From IMG/VR virus record IMGVR_UViG_3300032245_000303: a stretch of 20,000 nt of DNA; one strand, 5' to 3'. This document shows, piece by piece, positions 4,556-18,905 of this stretch (within the stretch, counting starts at the first letter, position 1; every line of letters begins with the position of its first letter). Origin of the DNA: an uncultured virus (IMG/VR IMGVR_UViG_3300032245_000303) (Duplodnaviria > Heunggongvirae > Uroviricota > Caudoviricetes). Made by a program: the position numbers and the translations under genes. The notes below the pieces were generated by a model. It was not told the DNA's origin and made no database searches. It saw only the letters and a list, made by a program, of their open reading frames with translations.

Positions 4556-4692
4556 GTTGAATAACTCCTTAAATACATTAAATCTATTGCTAAATATAAT
4601 CCATACATAATTCCTACTGTACCAAAGATAACAATGGTCATAATAATTTGTTCTACTATAAGTTCTTGTAGGGGTATCTTTTGTTTTCTCAT
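4549..4692 (-). CDS. Small membrane protein (47 aa)
   Basis: MRKQKIPLQELIVEQIIMTIVIFGTVGIMYGLYLAIDL has one hydrophobic helix; ATGA overlap with the glycosyltransferase stop. Confidence 0.55.
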   Translation of the reverse strand: MRKQKIPLQELIVEQIIMTIVIFGTVGIMYGLYLAIDLMYLRSYSTC

Positions 4693-5450
4693 ACTCTTGG
4701 TAAGAATCCGCTGAATGTATATGAGCCTGTATGAGATAGTTGCGCCCAAGGTGCCGCCCATACTTTAAAGCCATTGTCCCTAGCTAATTTGCAGAAGTGA
4801 TAATCCTCTGATAAAAGGCGATTACCCGAATCTTTATCAATACTTGTATCAAAGAACTGGTATATTTTTCGTGGTTTACGTTCTGTATCTATGATGGTGT
4901 ACATGTCACTATTATAAGTGGGTACAACATCTTTTAATTTTTCTAGTACTTCACGCTTAATAAGCATAAACCCCGTACCACCATTAGCAATCTCAATAGG
5001 TTCACTAAGTTTTACTTGTATATGTGGTGCATGGTCTACGGCATTTACTACAAACACTCCCGTATAATTTCCTAATGATTGTGGTGGTATGCCTTCTTTA
5101 ACTGCGTCTGATACTTGATTCCAATTAATTTCTTTTTTAGGATATATACCACATATAACATCTTTATCAGCAGTCACCATCGGGATAATATCTTGTGGAT
5201 TAAATCCAATATCAGAATCTATAAATAGTAGGTGTGTACATTCTTTGGTATCTAAAAAATCATTTGCTAAACTATCACGTGCGCGAGTAATTAAAGACTC
5301 GTTCATCATATGAGAAAAGGTAAAACCCATTCCCGAATTGGTAAAGGTATTTACCATAGTAAGTAAACTTGTGGCAAACGCACCATGACACATTCCACCA
5401 TACATTGGAGTTGCTACAAATAAAAACGGCACTTCTACTTTTTGTTCCAT
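4689..5450 (-). CDS. GT-A fold glycosyltransferase-like protein
   Basis: LFVATPMYGG, ESLITRAR, DxD motif LFIDSD, GTGFMLIKR, LSEDYHFC...GFKVW...LSHTG. Confidence 0.8.
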   Translation of the reverse strand: MEQKVEVPFLFVATPMYGGMCHGAFATSLLTMVNTFTNSGMGFTFSHMMNESLITRARDSLANDFLDTKECTHLLFIDSDIGFNPQDIIPMVTADKDVICGIYPKKEINWNQVSDAVKEGIPPQSLGNYTGVFVVNAVDHAPHIQVKLSEPIEIANGGTGFMLIKREVLEKLKDVVPTYNSDMYTIIDTERKPRKIYQFFDTSIDKDSGNRLLSEDYHFCKLARDNGFKVWAAPWAQLSHTGSYTFSGFLPRV

Positions 5451-8394: not shown

Positions 8395-9585
8395 TTAATC
8401 AATATGTACTGCCACACCCACATTAGGTGTCGCACGTTTATTACCTTGTATGCACCATATTAATGGTACACTCCATGCACCCCATGAGTTGCCCAAGTGT
8501 CCGTCTGTCAATACCACTACACATTCGGGTTTGATGCCATGCTCATTCATATAGCTTGGTACACACTCGACCATAGTTCCACCACCACCTTTCGGCTTAG
8601 TAGCTTTAGGTAAGTTGTCTAACTCATCTTGGTTATATACTTCGTGACCACATACTTCGGTATCCCAATAAAGTACACGTACCTTACTTGGCTTGACACT
8701 ATCACATATACCCTTGACTTCTGAAAGAAATGCACGTAGTTCTCTCTCGCCGATTGAACCCGACGTGTCGATTGCTACGACTATCTCACCGATTGACTCA
8801 CTGATACTACTTGGCATTAACATGTTATAACCTATGTATCGTCGATTAGGTTTGCGCCATGTCGAATAGTCTTTGCCTGCACACGTGGTAGATACAAAGT
8901 CTCGTAAGAGTTCGCGCCAATCTTTCTTAGGCTCGAGTAAATCTTTTAAGTCACGTAGTCCACCCGTACCCATCTTGCCTGCCATGATTGCACCTTGACG
9001 TACTGCTTCATCAATCTCACGTGCTAGGGCTTCGGCTTCATCACTCGATAGTTCTTTAGCACCTGCCCAATCATGTTCATCGAAACCTTGCCCATCACCT
9101 TGCTTACCTTGACCTTGCCCTTGACCATCATCACCACTATCCTCTAGTAGTTTAAATACTTGGTCTGTGTTCATGTTGGTGTACTTACTATCCATGAGTC
9201 CACCTTGTGGCATCTTAATCCACTGACTCTTGTATGCGTCTGTGTCTGCAAGTTTAAGGTTAATCACATAGTCACATGCTTGGTTAGTTCGCATAGAGTC
9301 TATCTGATTAAGATGTTGCCATGTACTAAGATGTCGGTACATCTTGTGATAGCACTCATGTAGCATAACAAATCTGAATTCGGCATCACTTAACTTATCT
9401 ACAAATGCTCTGCCATACATTTCATCTTTGCCATTAGTACATGCAGTAGGTACATCATCTACCACCTTCTTACTACCAATCATCAATACACCTGCGAGTG
9501 CTACAAATTCATCTCGACCAATGATGTCGGTCGTTGCTTTATACAAGCGTTGTTCTGCCGTTAAAGTTTTACCTATGTTTAACAT
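8395..9585 (-). CDS. DUF2201-type HExxH metallopeptidase-like + vWA domain protein
   Basis: PTACTNG, HECYH (HExxH), NQACDYVIN, G/Q-rich linker, MIDAS DTSGS, GGGGT, VLTDG. Confidence 0.88.
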   Translation of the reverse strand: MLNIGKTLTAEQRLYKATTDIIGRDEFVALAGVLMIGSKKVVDDVPTACTNGKDEMYGRAFVDKLSDAEFRFVMLHECYHKMYRHLSTWQHLNQIDSMRTNQACDYVINLKLADTDAYKSQWIKMPQGGLMDSKYTNMNTDQVFKLLEDSGDDGQGQGQGKQGDGQGFDEHDWAGAKELSSDEAEALAREIDEAVRQGAIMAGKMGTGGLRDLKDLLEPKKDWRELLRDFVSTTCAGKDYSTWRKPNRRYIGYNMLMPSSISESIGEIVVAIDTSGSIGERELRAFLSEVKGICDSVKPSKVRVLYWDTEVCGHEVYNQDELDNLPKATKPKGGGGTMVECVPSYMNEHGIKPECVVVLTDGHLGNSWGAWSVPLIWCIQGNKRATPNVGVAVHID

Positions 9586-9619
9586 ATCATTCTCCTAGTT
9601 GTTAGTCGGTCGACTAACA

Positions 9620-10744
9620 TTATTTTTTATCGGCACTAAACATAAAGTTATTAGCAATACACCATTCGGTAAACTTCTTATTACTCATGACGATTGCTTG
9701 TTTCTGATACTTAGGGTTTCTCACTTGCATAGCAAACAAGGCTTGTGCTTCTTTATCAAGTCTGTTTAGATATACCATAAACGAGTCAATGAAGTCTTTG
9801 TTCATAGTTGCCAATGCTCGATACACAATCATGACGATTGCTGATGATGACTCTGGAACTTTAGCTTCGAGTGGTTTCGTCTTAATATCTTCCTGTGTTG
9901 GAAGTTGGTCAACCAATTCGATATATGCATCTAGGTCTGCGCCACCACGTGCGCCAATAGTACCAATCAAGTTGGACTTCAAGGCATTGTGACTTAACTT
10001 ATCCTTAGCCCATAACCAATGAGACGCTAACTCGGCTGAACGTGGCGTAAAGAACGCAGGACGTTGAGCCTGTGGGTGATAGATATACGGATTACCACCT
10101 ACTTCGTCGTCGGGTTTATCGACTTCCTCATACGATTGAAATAGTTGTTCACCATTTTCTTTGACCCACATAATAAGTGATGGGTGTATTCCTGCATTGA
10201 ACGCATAATTTTCTATCCATTCAGTTGCAGTTGGTTTCTTCATACGTATAACTGTGATACGATTTCTATGGTGGGGCATAAGTAAGTCACCAACACCTTC
10301 TGTGCCAAGATTAGTCGTTGCAAATACGATAGACTCGGGGTGCAATTTCTTATTCCCCATTGTTCTCTCTAACATAATTCGCATCATGCCATTCTTAACT
10401 GATGGGTTCGCTTTACCAAACTCGTCAATCATTAAGATGATGGGCTTATCATGGTGCATACCCATTTCTTCGTTCGGTACAAACTTTACAAAGTCTTGAG
10501 TGTCATCACTTACTATTTTCGGCAACATCAAATCACCTAAATCTTTAGTGGTACAATCAAAATAACATGGGATATGGTCGGGCAATTTACTTGCCAATAT
10601 CTTAAGGATTGATGACTTGCCTGTACCCATATGACCTTGTACCAATGTTGTCACCTTGTGTCCTGTTGCTAAGATACTGTCTGCACACTCGTCGATAGAT
10701 TGTGCGAATAAACTTTCTGCTGATTGTTTCATGTATGTCTCCAT
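9620..10744 (-). CDS. MoxR/dynein-related AAA+ ATPase
   Basis: Walker A GHMGTGKS, Walker B LMIDEFGK, sensor ATTN, TPRS; adjacent to a vWA partner. Confidence 0.88.
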   Translation of the reverse strand: METYMKQSAESLFAQSIDECADSILATGHKVTTLVQGHMGTGKSSILKILASKLPDHIPCYFDCTTKDLGDLMLPKIVSDDTQDFVKFVPNEEMGMHHDKPIILMIDEFGKANPSVKNGMMRIMLERTMGNKKLHPESIVFATTNLGTEGVGDLLMPHHRNRITVIRMKKPTATEWIENYAFNAGIHPSLIMWVKENGEQLFQSYEEVDKPDDEVGGNPYIYHPQAQRPAFFTPRSAELASHWLWAKDKLSHNALKSNLIGTIGARGGADLDAYIELVDQLPTQEDIKTKPLEAKVPESSSAIVMIVYRALATMNKDFIDSFMVYLNRLDKEAQALFAMQVRNPKYQKQAIVMSNKKFTEWCIANNFMFSADKK

Positions 10745-10778
10745 TTTAAAATTAAGTTAGTCGTCGGACTAACACGTA

Positions 10779-11669
10779 CTACCATGCAAACTCTTTTAAT
10801 AACTCATCAACCTTGCGCTTTGTGTCATGACGTAAATAGTCATCATCACGTAGTGCGTCGGGTGTAATACCTTTTAATGCGTCAGTAATTTTTAACTTAG
10901 CTTTACGCATAGCGTCATCATTCGTCACATTAAACTTGTCGAGTAATTCGACGATGCCAGTCACATTTGTGACAAGTGTATCTCTGAATATCTGCTTGTT
11001 ATCGCCTGCTAACTTCTCACTCATAGATTTCAGTGCGTCATAAGTTCTCTGCCATACATCTTTATAAGCGTTATGCAGTTGTTCCTCATAGTAGTTGGCA
11101 TAACTCTCGTTAAGTTGTTTGAGTGCGTCCTGTCCCACATCAACCCTAAAGTCCCCCACTTCGGGTACAGGGCTATACTTCAATCTAAATGCAAACTTCG
11201 CTGAGACTTCAGATATATCGGGATAGTCCTCGGGATTAAACAAGTTGCCTAGTTTCCCATGCGCACGTGCAATCATGTTGTCGTAGTCATTGATAAACTC
11301 TGTCACTAGCCGATTGAATTCGGCGTCGGCTTCAGTCATCTTTTTGTTATACTCAAAGAATAAGGGAGTTGTAAGTAAACGTAAGCCACTGTCTGACCAT
11401 GGCATAGTTTGGTAATAGTGTGCAGTTCTAGCTGAGCCTGCAAACTTATTGATAGCTTCAAACTTAGGTTCGTCGGCAAATAACTTCTTATGATAATTGC
11501 CTGCCCTTGTCGTTGTATGCTTTTGAGTGTCAATCTCTTGTGATACGCTTTTATCAAACTTGCGTCCTGTCCACAAAGATATGTTTAGTTCTACTAACAT
11601 AGCTGATGATGCTATGCTTGGTGCATTGTTAGTCGGCTGACTAACAGTCGTTGATGTTTCCATTTCCAT
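10779..11669 (-). CDS. DUF3150-like alpha-helical phage protein
   Basis: MLVELNISLWTGRKFD, TMPWSDSGLRLL, LFNPEDYP...KF. This family is typically found next to AAA/vWA genes (recalled). Confidence 0.6.
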   Translation of the reverse strand: MEMETSTTVSQPTNNAPSIASSAMLVELNISLWTGRKFDKSVSQEIDTQKHTTTRAGNYHKKLFADEPKFEAINKFAGSARTAHYYQTMPWSDSGLRLLTTPLFFEYNKKMTEADAEFNRLVTEFINDYDNMIARAHGKLGNLFNPEDYPDISEVSAKFAFRLKYSPVPEVGDFRVDVGQDALKQLNESYANYYEEQLHNAYKDVWQRTYDALKSMSEKLAGDNKQIFRDTLVTNVTGIVELLDKFNVTNDDAMRKAKLKITDALKGITPDALRDDDYLRHDTKRKVDELLKEFAW

Positions 11670-11710
11670 TCTCCTTAGTTGATTTAATAAACTTTACCAC
11701 CATATGATAC

Positions 11711-11739
11711 AGTATAACACACTTTAACATCTTAGTCAA
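11711..11739 (-). promoter_or_regulatory. Strong sigma70-type early promoter
   Basis: Minus strand TTGACT (11739-11734), 17 bp, TATACT (11716-11711), with TGn extended -10; upstream of the DUF3150/AAA/vWA operon. Confidence 0.85.
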
Positions 11740-11741
11740 TG

Positions 11742-11891
11742 TTAGTGGGTGGGTCTACGAATACCATAAACTTTACGCCGTGACTTCGTGATGATGTCGT
11801 TCGCGTCTAACACGTTCTGCATAATGACTTCATCTTTAGTCCATGCGAGTATCACATATTCCTTTCGGTTAATTCTTTTTGTGAGTCGCAT
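11742..11891 (-). CDS. Hypothetical protein (49 aa)
   Basis: Trimmed from the track ORF to MRLTKRINRK..., with a GAGGA SD. Confidence 0.5.
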   Translation of the reverse strand: MRLTKRINRKEYVILAWTKDEVIMQNVLDANDIITKSRRKVYGIRRPTH

Positions 11892-11892
11892 A

Positions 11893-12183
11893 TCAATCCT
11901 CACACGTGCCACTACTGCACATTTTAGCCTCGAGTATTTCACGTTCTAGTTCCTCGACTGCTATATGGTTGATGAGTGTATGCTGATATTCCTTAACGTC
12001 TTTGTATATATCACCTTCTAAAACATTGACGTTTATCAACATTCCTCGGTCTTGCACGTGGTCTTTAATGACTGACTCTATATAGGTCTCGGGTGTAATT
12101 TCGCTACCTAGCGAACCAATCATTCTTAACTTGTCCTCGTCCAATGTCACTTGGGCTACGATACTAAACTTAATTGTTTTCAT
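11893..12183 (-). CDS. Hypothetical protein (96 aa)
   Basis: ORF overlapping its upstream neighbour in the early operon. Confidence 0.7.
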   Translation of the reverse strand: MKTIKFSIVAQVTLDEDKLRMIGSLGSEITPETYIESVIKDHVQDRGMLINVNVLEGDIYKDVKEYQHTLINHIAVEELEREILEAKMCSSGTCED

Positions 12184-12409
12184 TTTCTATCCCTTCCATA
12201 TAGTCTATAAAATCATCTCTATCCATATACGCTTTCAATACTGCTTTTATATGTGTAGCCATGGCTTGTCTATGTTCAACATCTTCACACTCGGGGTCTT
12301 TTAAAAACTCCAAGATAAGTTCATAGTATTCCTGCAAGTCTGTTATTACTATGTCGTTTATTTCACTCTCATCTAGTTCATACCTAATATCAATGGTTTG
12401 ATTACTCAT
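12170..12409 (-). CDS. Hypothetical acidic protein (79 aa)
   Basis: D/E-rich ORF with AAGGA SD. Confidence 0.7.
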   Translation of the reverse strand: MSNQTIDIRYELDESEINDIVITDLQEYYELILEFLKDPECEDVEHRQAMATHIKAVLKAYMDRDDFIDYMEGIENENN

Positions 12410-12585
12410 TTGTCATCTTCCTTTATTTCACGTACTCGACCATAGCCACGTTTTTTACTTTCGTGCATTTCGTCAAGCATTTCTTGATAACGTCTTTTGG
12501 TTTCTCGGTTAATCTTATCTCGCATTAACGTCGCACCACAAAAGAACCCACATACAAACCATACTAAAAAATGTATATATTCCAT
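12406..12585 (-). CDS. Small membrane-anchored protein (59 aa)
   Basis: Not in the ORF track. MEYIHFLVWFVCGFFCGATLMRDKINRE... has a hydrophobic N-terminus, an AAGGA SD and an ATGA overlap with the next gene. Confidence 0.65.
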   Translation of the reverse strand: MEYIHFLVWFVCGFFCGATLMRDKINRETKRRYQEMLDEMHESKKRGYGRVREIKEDDK

Positions 12586-12586
12586 A

Positions 12587-12808
12587 CTATCCTTTCAAAC
12601 TCATGATTGAAAAAATTAACACCATTGCTACTACATACGGCAAAACATAACATACAAAATCTTTTGCCACTTCCTTTACGCGTTCAATTCGGCATCGTCT
12701 TACATGCCGATTGTGTTCTGACATAGCTACGTGCCTGTCATAATTATATGCACGTTGTTTTGTTTCAGTTGTTAGTCTGTCGACTAACTTTTTATTTAGT
12801 GTTTCCAT
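12587..12808 (-). CDS. Hypothetical protein with C-terminal TM helix (73 aa)
   Basis: Hydrophobic tail FVCYVLPYVVAMVLIFSIM; GGGGG SD. Confidence 0.65.
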   Translation of the reverse strand: METLNKKLVDRLTTETKQRAYNYDRHVAMSEHNRHVRRCRIERVKEVAKDFVCYVLPYVVAMVLIFSIMSLKG

Positions 12809-12957
12809 ACTTTAGTCCCCCTTAAAATAATATCGATTGCTAAAAGTTTTGTTTCATTATCTACATCTACTTCTTGTTTCAATTTCTTTTTAAGTTTCAT
12901 TAACGTGTTAATAGGTAAGTCCCGATACTGCACGATATAGCTCTGAATTAAACTCAT
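12796..12957 (-). CDS. Hypothetical protein (53 aa)
   Basis: Not in the ORF track. MSLIQSYIVQYRDLPINTLMKLKKKLKQE...; AGGAG SD; ATGA overlap with the upstream stop. Confidence 0.6.
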   Translation of the reverse strand: MSLIQSYIVQYRDLPINTLMKLKKKLKQEVDVDNETKLLAIDIILRGTKVWKH

Positions 12958-13157
12958 TTTGTTTCTCCTATTCTTTTACCATTAACTTCAATGTCATCAT
13001 AGTTTTCACCTGTCACTACAATGTCATCACCAAAATACTTCTTAAAGATAGGTTCGATTTCACCTACTGATATTATCTCGTAGGCTTCTTCTTCCGTCTC
13101 GGCTTCAACATCAAACATTTCCCGTGACTGCATTATTATTCTGTATCGCTTTGTCAT
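12954..13157 (-). CDS. Hypothetical protein (67 aa)
   Basis: Common small phage early-protein pattern VEAETEEEA; ATGA overlaps. Confidence 0.7.
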   Translation of the reverse strand: MTKRYRIIMQSREMFDVEAETEEEAYEIISVGEIEPIFKKYFGDDIVVTGENYDDIEVNGKRIGETK

Positions 13158-13357
13158 TTTACTAAACCCCCCTTGTTATTCAAACCTTTCAAATCGTCCA
13201 TGTTTGTGATGAGCATGTAATTACTCTTGTGCATAGGTGCTATGGTGTGCTTTACTCGTCGTGCTATTTCCTCACCACATTGTAGGCATACGGCATAACC
13301 TAACCTTGCACGTGCTTGGTGTATCTGATTACCACAATCTTTACAGTGATGCTTCAT
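13154..13357 (-). CDS. DksA/TraR-like C4 zinc-finger protein
   Basis: CKDCGNQIHQARARLGYAVCLQC matches CxxCGxxIxxxR...CxxC; AAGGAG SD. Confidence 0.65.
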   Translation of the reverse strand: MKHHCKDCGNQIHQARARLGYAVCLQCGEEIARRVKHTIAPMHKSNYMLITNMDDLKGLNNKGGLVK

Positions 13358-13391
13358 AATATTCTCCTTAAAATGTTAGTCGGCTGACTAA

Positions 13392-13823
13392 CTACCATGC
13401 ACTTAATCGGTGCGCTAGTTTTGAGTTGGCTATGTTATGTATGGCTCGGTTAATTTCTTCCTCAGTCATACGCATTGATGAGTTGTTCTCGGGTTGTACT
13501 ACGACACCGACTATGCCATAACGAGCTAGTCGTTTCATCTGTTCTGTATCCATAGGTATCGTGGGGCTACTTGGGCGTGTGTGACTCTGTTGTCTTGTGG
13601 TGCTTCGTGAATACTTATCGGTGTTCTCGTACCATGTGGGTGTGCCACCTTCAAACCATTCAGCTACATACATGGGGAAGTGGTAGCCATATGAATAGAC
13701 TACGTATAAATAAGTGGGGCGTGTTTCAGTTGGTGCGTTAGTTTCGGCAAAGGTATTGCTACCTTTGAAATCTGTTAGTCCGTTGACTAACACTCTTGCG
13801 TTCTTGTTTGATGTTGCTTTCAT
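13392..13823 (-). CDS. Hypothetical early protein (143 aa)
   Basis: GGAG SD; first gene after the promoter at 13965-13993. Confidence 0.75.
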   Translation of the reverse strand: MKATSNKNARVLVNGLTDFKGSNTFAETNAPTETRPTYLYVVYSYGYHFPMYVAEWFEGGTPTWYENTDKYSRSTTRQQSHTRPSSPTIPMDTEQMKRLARYGIVGVVVQPENNSSMRMTEEEINRAIHNIANSKLAHRLSAW

Positions 13824-13964
13824 AATGTGTCTCCGTAAAAGTTATACAAAAGTAAAACATATTGTTCGTGAGCCTGATGAGCCTGTCATTAACATACAAC
13901 GTATTAACATGTTATGACATAGTTAGTCGGTGGACTAACAGCAATACCTCGACCACTTAATAAT

Positions 13965-13993
13965 AGTATAACACGTATGTCGGTCTTAGTCAA
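13965..13993 (-). promoter_or_regulatory. Strong sigma70-type early promoter
   Basis: Minus strand TTGACT (13993-13988), 17 bp, TATACT (13970-13965), with TGn. Shares TTGACTAAGA and GTGTTATACT with the promoter at 11711-11739. Confidence 0.85.
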
Positions 13994-14027
13994 GTAAAGT
14001 GATATCAAAGTCTAGTAATTCGTTAGT

Positions 14028-14306
14028 TATATTATTAATATATATTATATTATATTATAAAGTATTTGAACCTATTGAACCTTATTTGTTCTTTAATGCC
14101 CCTTGGTACGACTGCTTTGTACCTTTGTTCCTTTTGAACCCTGCTTTTTAGTGTGTCGGGCAAAAATGGATTTAAGTTAAGAAATATTGAAAAGGTAAGG
14201 TCTGTTTGGCGAAACACTCAAAAACATGGGTTCAATAGGTTCAATACGAACAAAACTTAATAATCAATGACTTACGGGGTTCAATACAAGGTTCAATTGG
14301 GTTCAA
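14028..14306. repeat. Origin-like region: AT tract, GGTTCAA iterons and IHF consensus site
   Basis: Pure A/T run about 14028-14061. TTGAACC at 14066, 14075, 14134. GGTTCAA at 14229, 14238, 14278, 14290, 14300. Perfect 16-bp inverted repeat 14066-14081 / 14229-14244. AATCAATGACTTA at 14262-14274. Confidence 0.65.
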
Positions 14307-14325
14307 TACAAAGTTAAAATAAGTC

Positions 14326-14354
14326 TTGCACATGAACAAAAAAAGTGATATGCT
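14326..14354 (+). promoter_or_regulatory. Putative sigma70 promoter for the cell-wall hydrolase gene
   Basis: TTGCAC (14326-14331), 17 bp, TATGCT (14349-14354), with TGn. Confidence 0.55.
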
Positions 14355-14383
14355 GTGAAGCATATCAGTTAGACAAGGCAACA

Positions 14384-14884
14384 ACCCTATGCTTTACGCT
14401 TTATAAAGTCACTGGTATACATTGTTAGTCCACTGACTAACATATTAATAGGAGAACTATATGGTGAACTTATTACCACAAGTTGCTTGTATGGCTATCG
14501 CTTTAATTGGTGAAACATACGGGGCTAACAATATCGAACTCACTCATGGTGTAGGTTATGTCATTATGAACCGAGCCAATCAAGATGTTAATAGGATATG
14601 TTCCGTGACCGAAGCACCTTATCAGTTTGATGGTGTTAGAAAAGTATTACAAGGTAAGATGTATATAGATGAAAAGACTTTGTTATCTTATGAGTTAATA
14701 TCTTTACAGATAATGAACAAGCAAGTCACTAATCCAGTTGGCAATGCTACACATTTTCATGATGACCGAGTAAAACCTTTTTGGTCTGTAGGTAGAAAAA
14801 AAATAATACGTATTGATAACATGACATTCTACTGAGCCGAAACTAATTTACCCTGTGCTACACGCGTTAAATAGTCACTGGTAT
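14384..14884 (+). repeat. 35-bp imperfect direct repeats (14384-14418 and 14850-14884) flanking the hydrolase gene
   Basis: ACCCTATGCTTTACGCTTTATAAAGTCACTGGTAT vs ACCCTGTGCTACACGCGTTAAATAGTCACTGGTAT; 29/35 identical, last 12 nt identical. Confidence 0.75.
14461..14835 (+). CDS. SleB/Hydrolase_2-family cell wall hydrolase
   Basis: CMAIALIGE (catalytic Glu), VGYVIMNR, ICSV...PYQF, ATHFH, PFWS, IDNMTFY; AGGAG SD. Confidence 0.85.
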   Translation: MVNLLPQVACMAIALIGETYGANNIELTHGVGYVIMNRANQDVNRICSVTEAPYQFDGVRKVLQGKMYIDEKTLLSYELISLQIMNKQVTNPVGNATHFHDDRVKPFWSVGRKKIIRIDNMTFY

Positions 14885-14942
14885 CTTTTCGCATAGCGAA
14901 ATATTCAGTAAGATATTAATGTTAGTCTTGCGACTAACAGGC

Positions 14943-14970
14943 AAAAAAAAGCCACCAATTAAGGTGGCTT
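14943..14970 (-). terminator. Rho-independent terminator
   Basis: Minus strand AAGCCACC-TTAATT-GGTGGC followed by T8; just after the stop of 14977..15186. Confidence 0.8.
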
Positions 14971-14976
14971 AAGATA

Positions 14977-15186
14977 TTAATATTTAGCTGGGTTATTTTT
15001 AAGTTCATAATCATTCTCACAATTTAATTCAAATTCCAAATCTATCGTGTGAGTTAAAACTATATGTCTGAGTTCCTCTAAAAATTCCAATTTATCGAAA
15101 GTAGAAAATTTAAAAAAATCTAATTCCATTAAATCAGCTTCAAGTTTAATTTTGTATTCATTCAATAAAACTTTATCGTGAGTCAT
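14977..15186 (-). CDS. Hypothetical acidic protein (69 aa)
   Basis: AGGA SD; followed by a terminator. Confidence 0.65.
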   Translation of the reverse strand: MTHDKVLLNEYKIKLEADLMELDFFKFSTFDKLEFLEELRHIVLTHTIDLEFELNCENDYELKNNPAKY

Positions 15187-15225
15187 AATTTAGTTTCCTA
15201 TAAAAATGTTAGTCATAAGACTAAC

Positions 15226-15259
15226 AAAAAAAAGAAGGGTTAGCTTTCACTAACCCTTC
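15226..15259 (-). terminator. Rho-independent terminator
   Basis: 10-bp stem GAAGGGTTAG / CTAACCCTTC, 6-nt loop, T8 on the minus strand; after the stop of 15267..15773. Confidence 0.85.
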
Positions 15260-15266
15260 AACCTGT

Positions 15267-15773
15267 TTACTTAACCATTGCTTTCGCACTAGCTACGATT
15301 TTCTTGAAACCTGCTATATCAAAATTAGGTTCCTCAATCTTTTCTGCTACTTCTATCGCGTCATTGAGTGAGTCAATGATACGTTCTACTGCACTACGTG
15401 TGACGCGTGGCGCCGTTGATTTTGGCGTTTCAAAATCTATCAAAGCGCGTTTTACTTTTCCATAATAAGAGCCGACTTGCATTTGCGCGTAGCGCTTTTC
15501 GGTCTTATCGCTTTCGCTAAGCGTCTTAGTATCCTTAGCTAACAATGACTGCCATGTCACAGGCAACCCTTTTATAATTGCTTGAGTGATACCAAATTGC
15601 AACGTGGCGTTTGGGTTCGCGTCAGTCTTTTTGCTAGGCTTATCTAACATTGATGACTTCACACCATCTGCGACTAGTAAATCAGTCATCTTTTTAGTTT
15701 TACCTTTTACATCTTGAGTAGCACTAACAACGTTAGTGATTGATACTTGAGTTAGTTCTTTTAATGTAGCCAT
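15267..15773 (-). CDS. Hypothetical basic protein (168 aa), first gene of the early arm
   Basis: AGGA SD, own terminator, K/A/T-rich; TATAAT on the minus strand at 15839-15834. Confidence 0.8.
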   Translation of the reverse strand: MATLKELTQVSITNVVSATQDVKGKTKKMTDLLVADGVKSSMLDKPSKKTDANPNATLQFGITQAIIKGLPVTWQSLLAKDTKTLSESDKTEKRYAQMQVGSYYGKVKRALIDFETPKSTAPRVTRSAVERIIDSLNDAIEVAEKIEEPNFDIAGFKKIVASAKAMVK

Positions 15774-16030
15774 GATATAAGTTTCCTATATAGTTAATGT
15801 CTGCATTGCGTTATTGCCTTGCCGACAGTTCCTATTATACGGGTTCTTGCCATGCCATGCTGAAAAGCCTGTTAGTCCTGTGACTAACATTGACCCCTAT
15901 ACCCCATTTTGTAGATTTGGTTCCATACCAACCTATAGGTCTACTATTACGCACACTACTAATCCAATATTTACAAATCACCCCCCGTCATCATTTTTAA
16001 GTACCTAGCCTAAAAAATTTTTTATATAAA

Positions 16031-16043
16031 AATCAAGCACTTA
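16031..16043 (+). promoter_or_regulatory. IHF consensus site
   Basis: AATCAAGCACTTA matches WATCAANNNNTTR, with an A/T tract upstream (about 16011-16030). Confidence 0.55.
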
Positions 16044-16157
16044 AGTTCACATAAAATTCGGCCGTGTAATTCATGGTTTTACGTAGGACATACTATATAT
16101 AGGGGTGCACAATGCAGTTATACACACGGTGTGTATAAAATTTTAAGGAGTATTACG

Positions 16158-16235
16158 ATGGCAACTTGGACTAAACCAGCAGCTACAGAAATGCGTTTTG
16201 GCTTTGAAGTGACTATGTACGTAATGAACAAATAA
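16158..16235 (+). CDS. pqqA: Pyrroloquinoline quinone precursor peptide PqqA (25 aa)
   Basis: Too short for the ORF track. MATWTKPAATEMRFGFEVTMYVMNK has the PqqA signature W-x-K-P...R-x-G-F-E-V-T-x-Y (ExxxY). AAGGAG SD at 16145-16150; terminator downstream. Confidence 0.95.
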   Translation: MATWTKPAATEMRFGFEVTMYVMNK

Positions 16236-16293
16236 TGATTATTGTAACGGACTGCTACTAAGTCACAAATAAGTAATAATTGCGTTATATACT

Positions 16294-16317
16294 AAGGGGC
16301 CTCGTGCCCCTTTTTTA
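16294..16317 (+). terminator. Rho-independent terminator after pqqA
   Basis: AAGGGGC-CTCGT-GCCCC followed by TTTTTT. Confidence 0.85.
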
Positions 16318-16342
16318 TTGCTTTTTATGTATACTATATAGT

Positions 16343-16687
16343 ATGGCCCCCAAAATACTTACTAGACGAAATTTAAGAATACTATATGGTGCACTTATTA
16401 AAATGCCACCGTTTAATCAGTATCGTATGCCTGCATCCCACAAGATTCAATTTGCAGTAAAGAAGTTAGACGGAGCCCTAGGATACTTTTATACAGAGCC
16501 TTGCCGAATTGAACTCGATATATCGAATGATACGTGGCATAAAATGAGTGAGACGTTATTGCATGAGATGATTCACTTGTGTCGATACCACAACGGCAAG
16601 TGGGATTTTGATTCACATAACCACAACTTCATGGGTTTGGCTCAAAGAATATGTGACATATATATGTTTGATATAGACACGTTCTAA
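16343..16687 (+). CDS. SprT-like zinc metalloprotease domain protein
   Basis: ETLLHEMIHL (HExxH) with downstream H...F (DSHNHNF). Start trimmed to ATG 16343 because the track extension crosses the terminator. Confidence 0.75.
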   Translation: MAPKILTRRNLRILYGALIKMPPFNQYRMPASHKIQFAVKKLDGALGYFYTEPCRIELDISNDTWHKMSETLLHEMIHLCRYHNGKWDFDSHNHNFMGLAQRICDIYMFDIDTF

Positions 16688-16738
16688 CAAATTAATATAT
16701 AATGCGCAAACCCCATATCAATCTGGACATAAGATTTG

Positions 16739-17380
16739 ATGCAACTAAACATAGAACCCGACGTAGGTATTGAGTTACCTGAAAACAATATTCCACTAGC
16801 TGACTTTAAAGAGAAAGCGGATGCCGCATGCGCGACAGCTGAGTATCTCGAACTAAAGATAGAACCCACCGAAGAAGATAAAGAGAAAGCTGAAGAAGTT
16901 ATTCTCAAGCTTGCTGAAGACCCAGACAAGGGGAACCGGAAAGCCCTGACGCAATCTAAACATTTTTCAGCGCCCACATATATACAGACTAAACACATAT
17001 TAGATTCTTATGCGTTGAAGGTGGTTGAGAACGCCACACAGATAAGACTGTTAGTAACAAATAAACTCATCCTGGAGTCAGAGAATGAAGATGCGAAGAT
17101 TAGACTTCGTGCACTCGAGCTACTTGGTAAGATTACAGACGTGGGACTTTTCACAGAAAAATCAGAAGTCACAGTGAATAACCGTTCATCACAAGAGTTA
17201 GTCAATACACTCAAAGATAAAATTAGAAAACTTATGTACCCACAAGAAAATGTTCAGGACGCTGAGACTGTGGAGTCAGTTGAACTTGATGGTGAGACTG
17301 TAGATATAGATAAAGAATTAGGAATAGAACCTGCCGAATCTAACGAACAGTATGATGATGACACAGACAAACCAGCTTGA
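16739..17380 (+). CDS. Probable terminase small subunit
   Basis: Directly upstream of and overlapping terL; RLRALELLGKITDVGLFTEK motif; acidic tail. Confidence 0.6.
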   Translation: MQLNIEPDVGIELPENNIPLADFKEKADAACATAEYLELKIEPTEEDKEKAEEVILKLAEDPDKGNRKALTQSKHFSAPTYIQTKHILDSYALKVVENATQIRLLVTNKLILESENEDAKIRLRALELLGKITDVGLFTEKSEVTVNNRSSQELVNTLKDKIRKLMYPQENVQDAETVESVELDGETVDIDKELGIEPAESNEQYDDDTDKPA

Positions 17381-18905
17381 GTCTTTAGATGATGTGGAAT
17401 TAAATTTTCTCCTCAATAATTTAGATGAGTTTGATTTAACTGACCAGGAAGAAATAGACTTAGTATTAGTTGAGTTAGAAAGACGTCAGAGTGCTCAAGC
17501 GTGTCGTGAGGACTTGATTGAGTTTTGTAAAAAGATGCAGTCTGATTATAAAGTGGGTAAGCACCACAGACGACTTGCAGACTTGCTAATGAATATTGCA
17601 GAAGGTACTGAGACAAGAATATGTGTGAACATGCCACCTCGTCATGGTAAATCTCAACTTGTATCTATATATTTTCCAGCATGGTTCTTAGGAAAGTATC
17701 CAGATAAAAAAGTTTTGATGGTATCACATACGACTGACTTAGCGGTTGACTTTGGTAGAAAGGTAAGGAACTTAATTGATAATCCTGCATATAAACAAAT
17801 ATTTCCTACAGTTACTTTGGCTGCAGATAATAAATCTGCTGGTCGGTGGAATACGAATGTTGGCGGTGAGTATTTTGCTTGTGGTGTGGGTTCCGCTCTT
17901 GCTGGTCGTGGCGCTGATTTACTCCTTGTTGATGACCCTCACAACGAGCAGGATATTATTAGCGGGAACTTCGAGATATTCGAGAAGGCATATGAATGGT
18001 TTACATATGGTGCGAGAACACGACTTATGCCAAAAGGACGTGTCGCGATTGTACAAACTCGATGGCACCAAGATGACTTAACTGGACGTGTTGTCCGTGA
18101 CATGCTCAATAATGAGGAAGCAGACCAGTATGAAGTGGTTGAGTTCCCTGCAATATTTAATGAAGGCGCTAAGGATGAGAAAGCACTTTGGCCAGAACAA
18201 TATACCTTACAAGCATTACGTCAAACAAAAGCGTCCATGCCCGTGTTCCAGTGGAACGCACAGTATCAACAGAATCCTACGGCAGAAGAAGCATCTGTTA
18301 TAAAAAGGGAATGGTGGAATATATGGAAAGAAGAAAGACCACCACAATGTGAATATATTATTATGAGTCTTGATGCCGCAGCCGAAACTAACAATCGAGC
18401 TGACTTTACTGCCCTCACTACATGGGGAGTATTTATGAATGAGGAAAAAGAAGCGTATAATATAATACTATTAAATAGTATTAAGAAACGGTTAGAATTT
18501 CCAGACCTAAAAGATTTAGCTTTAAATGAGTATAAAGAATGGGAACCTGATAGTTTTATTGTAGAAAAGAAGTCAGCAGGTACAGCTTTATATCAAGAAT
18601 TAAGAAGAATGGGTATGCCGGTGCAAGAATATACCCCACATCGTGGAAGTGGTGATAAACTAGCAAGATTAAATAGTGTAGCCGATATTGTAAAGTCTGG
18701 ACTATGTTGGATACCAGAAGCAAGGTGGGGCGAAGAAGTTATAGAAGAAATTGCAGGATTTCCATTTATGAGTCATGATGACTTGGTGGACTCAACCACA
18801 ATGGCACTCATGCGATTCAGACAAGGTGGGTTTATTAGGTTACCTTCAGACGAACCTGATGAATTAAAAATGTTTAAGTCAAGAAGAACTAAAGGTTATT
18901 ACTAA
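17352..18905 (+). CDS. terL: Terminase large subunit
   Basis: Walker A MPPRHGKS, GRGADLLLVDD Walker B, QTRWH coupling motif, RNase H-like nuclease SLDAA...DFTA...HDDLVDS. Confidence 0.95.
   Translation: MMMTQTNQLESLDDVELNFLLNNLDEFDLTDQEEIDLVLVELERRQSAQACREDLIEFCKKMQSDYKVGKHHRRLADLLMNIAEGTETRICVNMPPRHGKSQLVSIYFPAWFLGKYPDKKVLMVSHTTDLAVDFGRKVRNLIDNPAYKQIFPTVTLAADNKSAGRWNTNVGGEYFACGVGSALAGRGADLLLVDDPHNEQDIISGNFEIFEKAYEWFTYGARTRLMPKGRVAIVQTRWHQDDLTGRVVRDMLNNEEADQYEVVEFPAIFNEGAKDEKALWPEQYTLQALRQTKASMPVFQWNAQYQQNPTAEEASVIKREWWNIWKEERPPQCEYIIMSLDAAAETNNRADFTALTTWGVFMNEEKEAYNIILLNSIKKRLEFPDLKDLALNEYKEWEPDSFIVEKKSAGTALYQELRRMGMPVQEYTPHRGSGDKLARLNSVADIVKSGLCWIPEARWGEEVIEEIAGFPFMSHDDLVDSTTMALMRFRQGGFIRLPSDEPDELKMFKSRRTKGYY

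Follow-up and report, generated by a model that had tools for sequence, protein, structure and literature searches.

One PqqA peptide is consumed for each PQQ cofactor that is made. In the part of PMC12124388 available to us, PqqA is described as being modified to PQQ by PqqB-F, and producers as losing PQQ by diffusion. Hyphomicrobium denitrificans has five pqqA copies (PMC9851590, available part). The closest viral system is VP_266 from Lake Baikal, whose virus-encoded PqqA was proposed by Coutinho et al. 2020 to be an auxiliary gene for methanol oxidation (PMC7678222, available part), and pqqA is also among the viral genes in the accessible part of a 2026 listing (PMC13188868). The papers on Melnitz, MEP301 and other OM43 phages (PMC9004378, PMC8024684, PMC10580990), like PMC13059738, do not use the term pqqA in their main text.

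Here we analyse a pqqA gene in a 20,000-nt stretch (the window) of the uncultured virus record IMGVR_UViG_3300032245_000303. A first-pass annotation, made from the sequence, had proposed that the phage feeds the PQQ precursor into host machinery, and had mentioned earlier reports of pqqA in viral metagenomes; PMC7678222 bears this out and lowers the novelty of our gene, since a phage pqqA has been in print since 2020. We think it likely that this pqqA works and sits on an optional expression cassette with which a freshwater phage of lytic type, whose hosts are most likely Methylophilaceae, tops up the PQQ precursor.

An intact pqqA gene among phage genes

The pqqA ORF lies on the plus strand at 16158-16235 (25 codons plus TAA) and encodes the same peptide as in the first-pass annotation, preceded, as also reported there, by a Shine-Dalgarno sequence (AGGAG, 16146-16150) 7 nt before the ATG. 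The HMM search proposed at that stage upheld the assignment to PqqA, with 42.1 bits for PF08042 of Pfam (cut-off 21.1) and 40 bits for TIGR02107 of TIGRFAM (cut-off 20); PHROGs and PDB gave no match for the peptide. The ExxxY motif expected of such a short peptide is present near the C-terminus as E17-V-T-M-Y21. With both curated models at about twice their cut-offs the ORF is a genuine and intact PqqA. It has two residues extra after the Met relative to the usual 23-aa form, and residues 4-25 match the Methylophilaceae form of PqqA; the usual form with identical residues 4-25 accounts for 34 of 126 distinct host copies among the matches listed. Given this identity with host copies, the peptide should be convertible to PQQ by host PqqD, PqqE, PqqB and PqqC.

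Those enzymes are not encoded nearby. A Pfam scan of 24 window ORFs turned up no member of the PqqB-E families, in agreement with the earlier reading, and pqqA does not head a pqqBCDE operon in the window. PqqE and PqqC were also absent from eight related fragments, and searches of the window and of the sister fragments, each fragment covering 9-44% of a genome, gave no PQQ-dependent dehydrogenase.

The surroundings are those of a phage, as had been claimed. The minus strand encodes PolA, an exonuclease and an AAA/VWA pair, and the plus strand 3' of pqqA carries, as a context gene, a SprT-like ORF (16343-16687, start codon uncertain; PF10263, 36 bits), then a 214-aa ORF with no HMM match, the terminase large subunit gene (17352-18905; 46% identity to Pelagibacter phages HTVC023P and HTVC027P) and a portal gene. 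Judged by its genes, the window comes from a lytic-type freshwater phage related to HTVC023P, with a genome size of about 62 kb implied by sister contigs. The gene is thus a metabolic gene of host origin flanked by phage genes with no host contamination, and it has its own expression signals (SD, box, -10 and terminator) along with the mark of purifying selection (pS far above pN, with the IMG/VR value subject to the bias given below). Rfam searches over 13500-17000 gave just two chance-level matches, both at terminators, and a tRNA search found none.

Several other features of the window were recorded. Eight GGTTCAA repeats at 14066-14306, three facing five on the opposite strand, lie in an AT-rich gap near the GC-skew switch and are a candidate replication origin. 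An 18-bp palindrome, GTTAGTC-N4-GACTAAC, occurs in 14 copies (13 perfect) between 5739 and 15888, where 0.06 would be expected; start codons follow six of the copies at 29-39 nt and two more at about 115 nt. Sister phages keep the palindrome with variable spacers. It is probably the phage's own operator or promoter element and is absent from the pqqA promoter. One copy lies 37 nt upstream of a lone plus-strand cell-wall hydrolase gene (PF07486, 14461-14835) in the divergent region. In the row of DUF3150-like, AAA ATPase and DUF2201/VWA genes at 8395-11669, copies stand just upstream of two of the three genes and another lies within the first. A glycosyltransferase-like ORF at 4689-5450, whose best phage match is annotated as 'dpG-synthase-like protein' (54%), has a counterpart in the pqqA-bearing record MW202481 and a possible role in DNA modification. 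In some sisters terL and portal are separated by an inserted stretch of about 0.9-1 kb (the L318:2585-3548 equivalent in L255, and L252:6169-7101).

Host

The C-terminal pattern of the peptide was found in at least 123 genome stretches. Among the matches listed, 80 had genome titles, and these comprised 70 named Methylophilaceae or Methylophilales, eight higher-rank labels and two from one Acidovorax-labelled bin. From its cassette, therefore, the phage most likely infects Methylophilaceae. Searches with TerL, PolA, the glycosyltransferase-like protein and the hydrolase placed no methylotroph phage among the best matches listed. The methylotroph host suggested in the first pass from the look of the peptide thus keeps its first leg, a PqqA of Methylophilaceae type, while the other window genes give no independent host signal.

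An optional 196-bp cassette

Eight contigs were found via the 214-aa ORF, four of which reach the pqqA site. L251 and L253 have pqqA at the same site as the window. L250 and L252 share 98% identity with the window in the genes downstream; they lack exactly the 196 bp at 16066-16261 and have no pqqA elsewhere in their fragments. This plus-strand block comprises the box, -10, hairpin, SD, ORF and a 26-nt trailer, and is bounded by GT microhomology. Because L250 and L252 lack promoter, hairpin and ORF yet keep a variant of the terminator, the cassette is optional. The self-contained mini-unit described at first has to be redrawn for the same reason: its promoter (16070-16113) lies upstream of the range it was given, and its terminator persists without the cassette.

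We placed relatives with a quick version of a terL tree, which served for that purpose only. The fetched locus contained pqqA in none of 80 terL relatives (34 with at least 2.5 kb upstream, two of these being L250 and L252), and no pqqA was found in 35 more distant terL-related records searched whole (three near-complete) by a search that did recover the gene in G008. Its absence from near-identical L250 and L252 and from those 35 records indicates that the cassette is dispensable. Between the window and L253 the block 16114-16340 is nearly identical (e.g. 26/26, 31/31 and 47/48 bases), but the next two genes share just 87% and 79% identity, so recent recombination or exchange is likely. The sister comparison does not distinguish gain of the cassette from its loss.

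The first-pass annotation had named a chimeric assembly as grounds for abandoning its claim. Such a joining of host and phage DNA could draw on the fact that, among assembled contigs of four other runs, none spans the whole stretch. Single junctions are nevertheless bridged: run X9 has a contig running from the pqqA trailer into the SprT gene, run X5 has one from upstream phage DNA into pqqA, and run X2, whose study is not that of X9 or X5, has one that crosses the pqqA promoter. In addition, L251 and L253 independently show the window's arrangement, and GC content is even across the site. A chimera is therefore largely refuted and, in our judgement, extremely improbable. High contig depth over pqqA reflects copies from many organisms.

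A putative PQQ-supply box in host genomes

Methylophilaceae genomes hold three to five pqqA copies, most of them stand-alone, and would use the dosage trick that we propose for the phage. Upstream of host pqqA we found a 17-bp palindrome with a consensus near CTMATGA-WWW-TCATKAG. In 101 of 118 host copies among the matches listed, the centre of a strong box lies 53-54 nt ahead of the -10, and a second, degenerate site lies about 30 nt ahead of it. This two-site layout we take to resemble that of LysR promoters. LysR-type operators are defined by a centred T-N11-A motif, which occurs in none of 100 strong host boxes, and we rejected that assignment. A second type of host pqqA leader contains TCTCAAGTTGAACC; it is echoed in some viral leaders (CTCAAG...AGAC) and is possibly a conserved RNA leader (L154, L162, L201, L230 and L241; L002, L005, L006, L049 and L051).

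A strict box pattern matched 19 distinct places (24 rows) in five host genomes, 12 of which precede pqqA. The other seven comprise three inside the start of a quinoprotein-relay hydrolase gene, three in unrelated coding sequence and one before a pentapeptide-repeat gene. The conserved box at the start of the quinoprotein-relay metallohydrolase gene (TIGR04559; L287, L290 and L291, about 1500) is also upstream of a divergent cytochrome b561 gene, and these two genes are possible further regulon members. In G002 (L295:4378-9999) the box precedes a pqqB that lacks a pqqA; downstream of this pqqBCDE operon come an MFS gene and then a PqqU-type receptor gene with a box of its own.

The box is present upstream of all five best PqqU-like receptors (scores 11.9-14.6) but upstream of only 1 of 13 PQQ-dehydrogenase genes at a score of at least 8, and upstream of neither of two other TonB receptors. 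That single dehydrogenase upstream, together with the lack of any site scoring at least 12 in 68 kb, led us to discard a general methanol regulon. At the five pqqU-type genes the spacing from box to -10 is 30-31 nt. None of the five PqqU-like proteins reaches the cut-off of 1200 set for NF041535 (338-567 bits). The one of them that was checked, L309, aligned to 6v81, has F at Y99 together with R304 and R365, which corresponds to the PqqU signature of an aromatic residue at Y99 plus R304 and R365 given in the available part of PMC12124388. From these patterns we infer a PQQ-supply regulon in the hosts, whose one-box promoter type, as at pqqU, the phage would use. The literature searched, with subscription papers such as Ge et al. 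2015 (multiple pqqA promoters) outside its scope, describes no such box for Methylophilaceae.

The shared box at the receptor gene raises another use for a phage pqqA, namely the exclusion of superinfecting or competing phages: extra PQQ might close a PqqU-type receptor, or lower its expression via the box, and so bar other phages. Phages use PqqU as a receptor in E. coli, where infection by IsaakIselin is blocked by PQQ (PMC12124388, available part), and the Methylophilaceae receptor keeps the PqqU signature. We nevertheless regard this as unlikely, since pqqA is carried by many unrelated phage types that would hardly all depend on one receptor, and a route through four host enzymes would be slow and indirect.

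The predicted phage promoter has a single box

An imperfect 17-bp palindrome at 16070-16086 of the window matches this host box and is a putative regulator site at about -42. It adjoins a predicted weak promoter of the sigma70 type on the plus strand (16085-16113), with a -35-like AGGACA, a 17-nt spacer and a -10-like CACAAT (16108-16113); the predicted +1 is at about 16120. The -10 fits a model learnt from 100 host pqqA promoters, and a generic promoter scan left the promoter below threshold. With a matrix trained on hosts only, the window box scores 10.1-10.6. It is the sole site scoring at least 8 among 23 upstream regions of window genes and ranks third in the window as a whole, behind two sites within coding sequence. 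A single pattern match (1 against 0.04 expected) is not counted as evidence, as the pattern had been widened to fit the window.

After duplicates and copies with less than 150 nt upstream had been dropped, upstreams with a box score above 10 numbered 98 of 118 in hosts (0.4% of shuffled controls) and 42 of 102 in viruses (1.1%), both among the matches listed, and five of six in GenBank phages (4.2%). The window box is centred 30 nt before the -10, and among the 102 listed viral copies 33 have a box at 29-31 nt only, 16 a distal box and 53 neither layout; none of the six GenBank phage copies fits either layout in a joint test of box plus -10. The proximal box has a median score of 9.3 in phages, where sites were pre-selected at 7 or more, compared with -2.7 for the proximal half-site at host pqqA.

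A proximal box so much nearer the consensus than its host counterpart might suggest a regulatory or protective role, with the box acting as a sink for the host regulator, the peptide tying up PqqD/E, or PQQ buffering the redox state of the infected cell. This too seems improbable to us. A decoy would need no intact ExxxY, SD, leader stem or terminator, and the one-box layout has a natural host model at pqqU.

Probable leader stem and terminator

Just after the -10 the plus strand carries the perfect 9-bp hairpin of the first-pass annotation (16118-16138). Its start only 4 nt past the -10 would put it at the very 5' end of the mRNA; it is probably a 5' mRNA stem, which plausibly stabilises the transcript. 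Alone, the window hairpin is unexceptional, as perfect stems of at least 9 bp occur at four places in the window and its folding z is -1.45. Across the 102 listed viral copies, however, 54 leader stems have z below -2 compared with 8 in an upstream control window, and these stems have many different sequences in which pairing is kept. We rejected an operator function of the hairpin, since its sequence varies while pairing persists.

The terminator reported earlier was also recovered, as a plus-strand terminator-like stem (16294-16312; -11.4 kcal/mol, z -2.09) with a T-run extending to 16318, outside the optional block. Terminator-like sites lie 3' of pqqA in 53 of 100 viral and 106 of 113 host copies among the matches listed.

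Prevalence in viruses and selection

An IMG/VR search with a pattern that fixed 18 residues returned at least 120 viral pqqA stretches. A PqqB motif was nearby in 0 of 120 viral stretches versus 14 of 123 host loci, both among the matches listed. Eighty listed loci of at least 2 kb and the window, 81 in all, fell into 26 flank clusters, and the 45 neighbouring genes scanned include capsid, terminase, primase, RNR and recombinase genes. Of the 14 tblastn matches in 50,697 phage records, nine are cultured Methylophilaceae phage records, one is a spring-water metagenomic phage and four are weak or partial; no match came from nine other named phage taxa of Methylophilaceae, whose sequences may be outside the collection. 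As the first pass had supposed of gene callers, pqqA had been missed: it is annotated in none of the six pqqA-bearing phage records examined. PqqE, PqqC and PQQ dehydrogenase were not found in six phage records searched whole, with a positive host control.

A dN/dS check across phage relatives, proposed earlier and run here as pN/pS, found divergence that is nearly all synonymous. Relative to the window, six GenBank copies have pS 0.58 and pN 0.06, and 86 viral IMG/VR copies among the matches listed have pS 0.52 and pN 0.012, the latter value being biased because the search pattern fixed 18 codons.

These data bear on whether pqqA is a neutral passenger, a short conserved host gene that is often picked up by recombination and then lost without benefit. 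Its presence and absence among 98%-identical phages would suit such a passenger, as would the recent exchange suggested by a cassette and terminator near-identical to those of L253 between flanks of 79-87% identity. However, the gene recurs in many independent contexts with synonymous-only divergence, its promoter layout is unlike that of host pqqA in the 33 listed one-box copies, and its leader stem is kept by structure. Together these observations point to selection in phages, and we give a neutral passenger little credence.

Discussion

We therefore return to the top-up of PQQ precursor as the likely role of the cassette. Host sigma70 polymerase, together with a putative host PQQ-supply regulator bound at about -42, would produce a short mRNA with a 5' stem. 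Host PqqD/PqqE would then accept the phage peptide and cross-link it at Glu17-Tyr21, and PqqB/PqqC would mature the product. By topping up the sole component that is spent per PQQ, the phage copy could keep methanol dehydrogenase loaded during infection, and host-type control of that copy would keep the precursor flowing while host enzymes are reused. Counting against this reading are the three to five copies that hosts already have, the sisters without the cassette and the 53 of 102 listed viral copies that fit neither promoter layout. The earlier proposal of an auxiliary metabolic gene feeding the host is thus supported in part: PqqA identity, phage context and absent enzymes speak for it, and its self-contained character needs the correction given above.

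A broader picture, which we offer tentatively and hold to be somewhat more apt to fail than to hold, is that PQQ homeostasis in Methylophilaceae is governed by an undescribed regulon, which comprises the pqqA copies, pqqBCDE and a PqqU-type importer and is marked by the 17-bp palindrome. Phages may repeatedly have added one RiPP precursor gene to this regulon, in many cases via a compact one-box promoter, so that the gene fires when the infected cell is short of PQQ, and pqqA may come close to a signature gene of methylotroph phages, overlooked in annotation. A phage pqqA of the kind described here shows a minimal form of phage steering of host metabolism, in which only the consumed peptide is supplied and the host's enzymes, and probably its regulator, are borrowed. 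The plus/minus cassette pair and cultured phage-host systems make the benefit directly testable; indeed, the effect of pqqA can be tested now, because the unannotated gene sits in cultured methylotroph phages. Moreover, uncultured phages that infect abundant methanol oxidisers may be assignable to their hosts by pqqA and its box.

Comparison with known systems

The podoviruses HTVC023P and HTVC027P are the best matches to the window's TerL in the phage collection, at the 46% identity given above, but the window lineage is freshwater and only its small clade carries pqqA among sampled relatives. The cultured Methylophilaceae phages P19250A, Venkman, MEP301, MEP401, MEP402 and Melnitz likewise have an intergenic pqqA, and five of them plus one metagenomic record are without the enzymes; in contrast to the window, they are unrelated phages with other insertion sites, and they share no DNA similarity with window positions 11000-17400 beyond pqqA. 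Stand-alone chromosomal pqqA genes of methylotrophs have the same peptide, monocistronic layout, SD, terminator and upstream box, but their strong box at 53-54 nt and weak second site (101 of 118 listed) are replaced in the window by one box at 30 nt. VP_266, as described in the available part of PMC7678222, is similar in being a freshwater phage with pqqA and a predicted Methylophilaceae host, yet it is T4-like and encodes methanol dehydrogenase, whereas the window phage encodes PolA and a terminase like that of HTVC023P, and neither the window nor the sister fragments yielded a dehydrogenase; the promoter, indel and prevalence are described here and not in that part of the report. Relative to these systems the gene class itself is known, and what is new is the proposed regulon link of the phage promoter, the natural plus/minus cassette pair and the missed pqqA in cultured phages.
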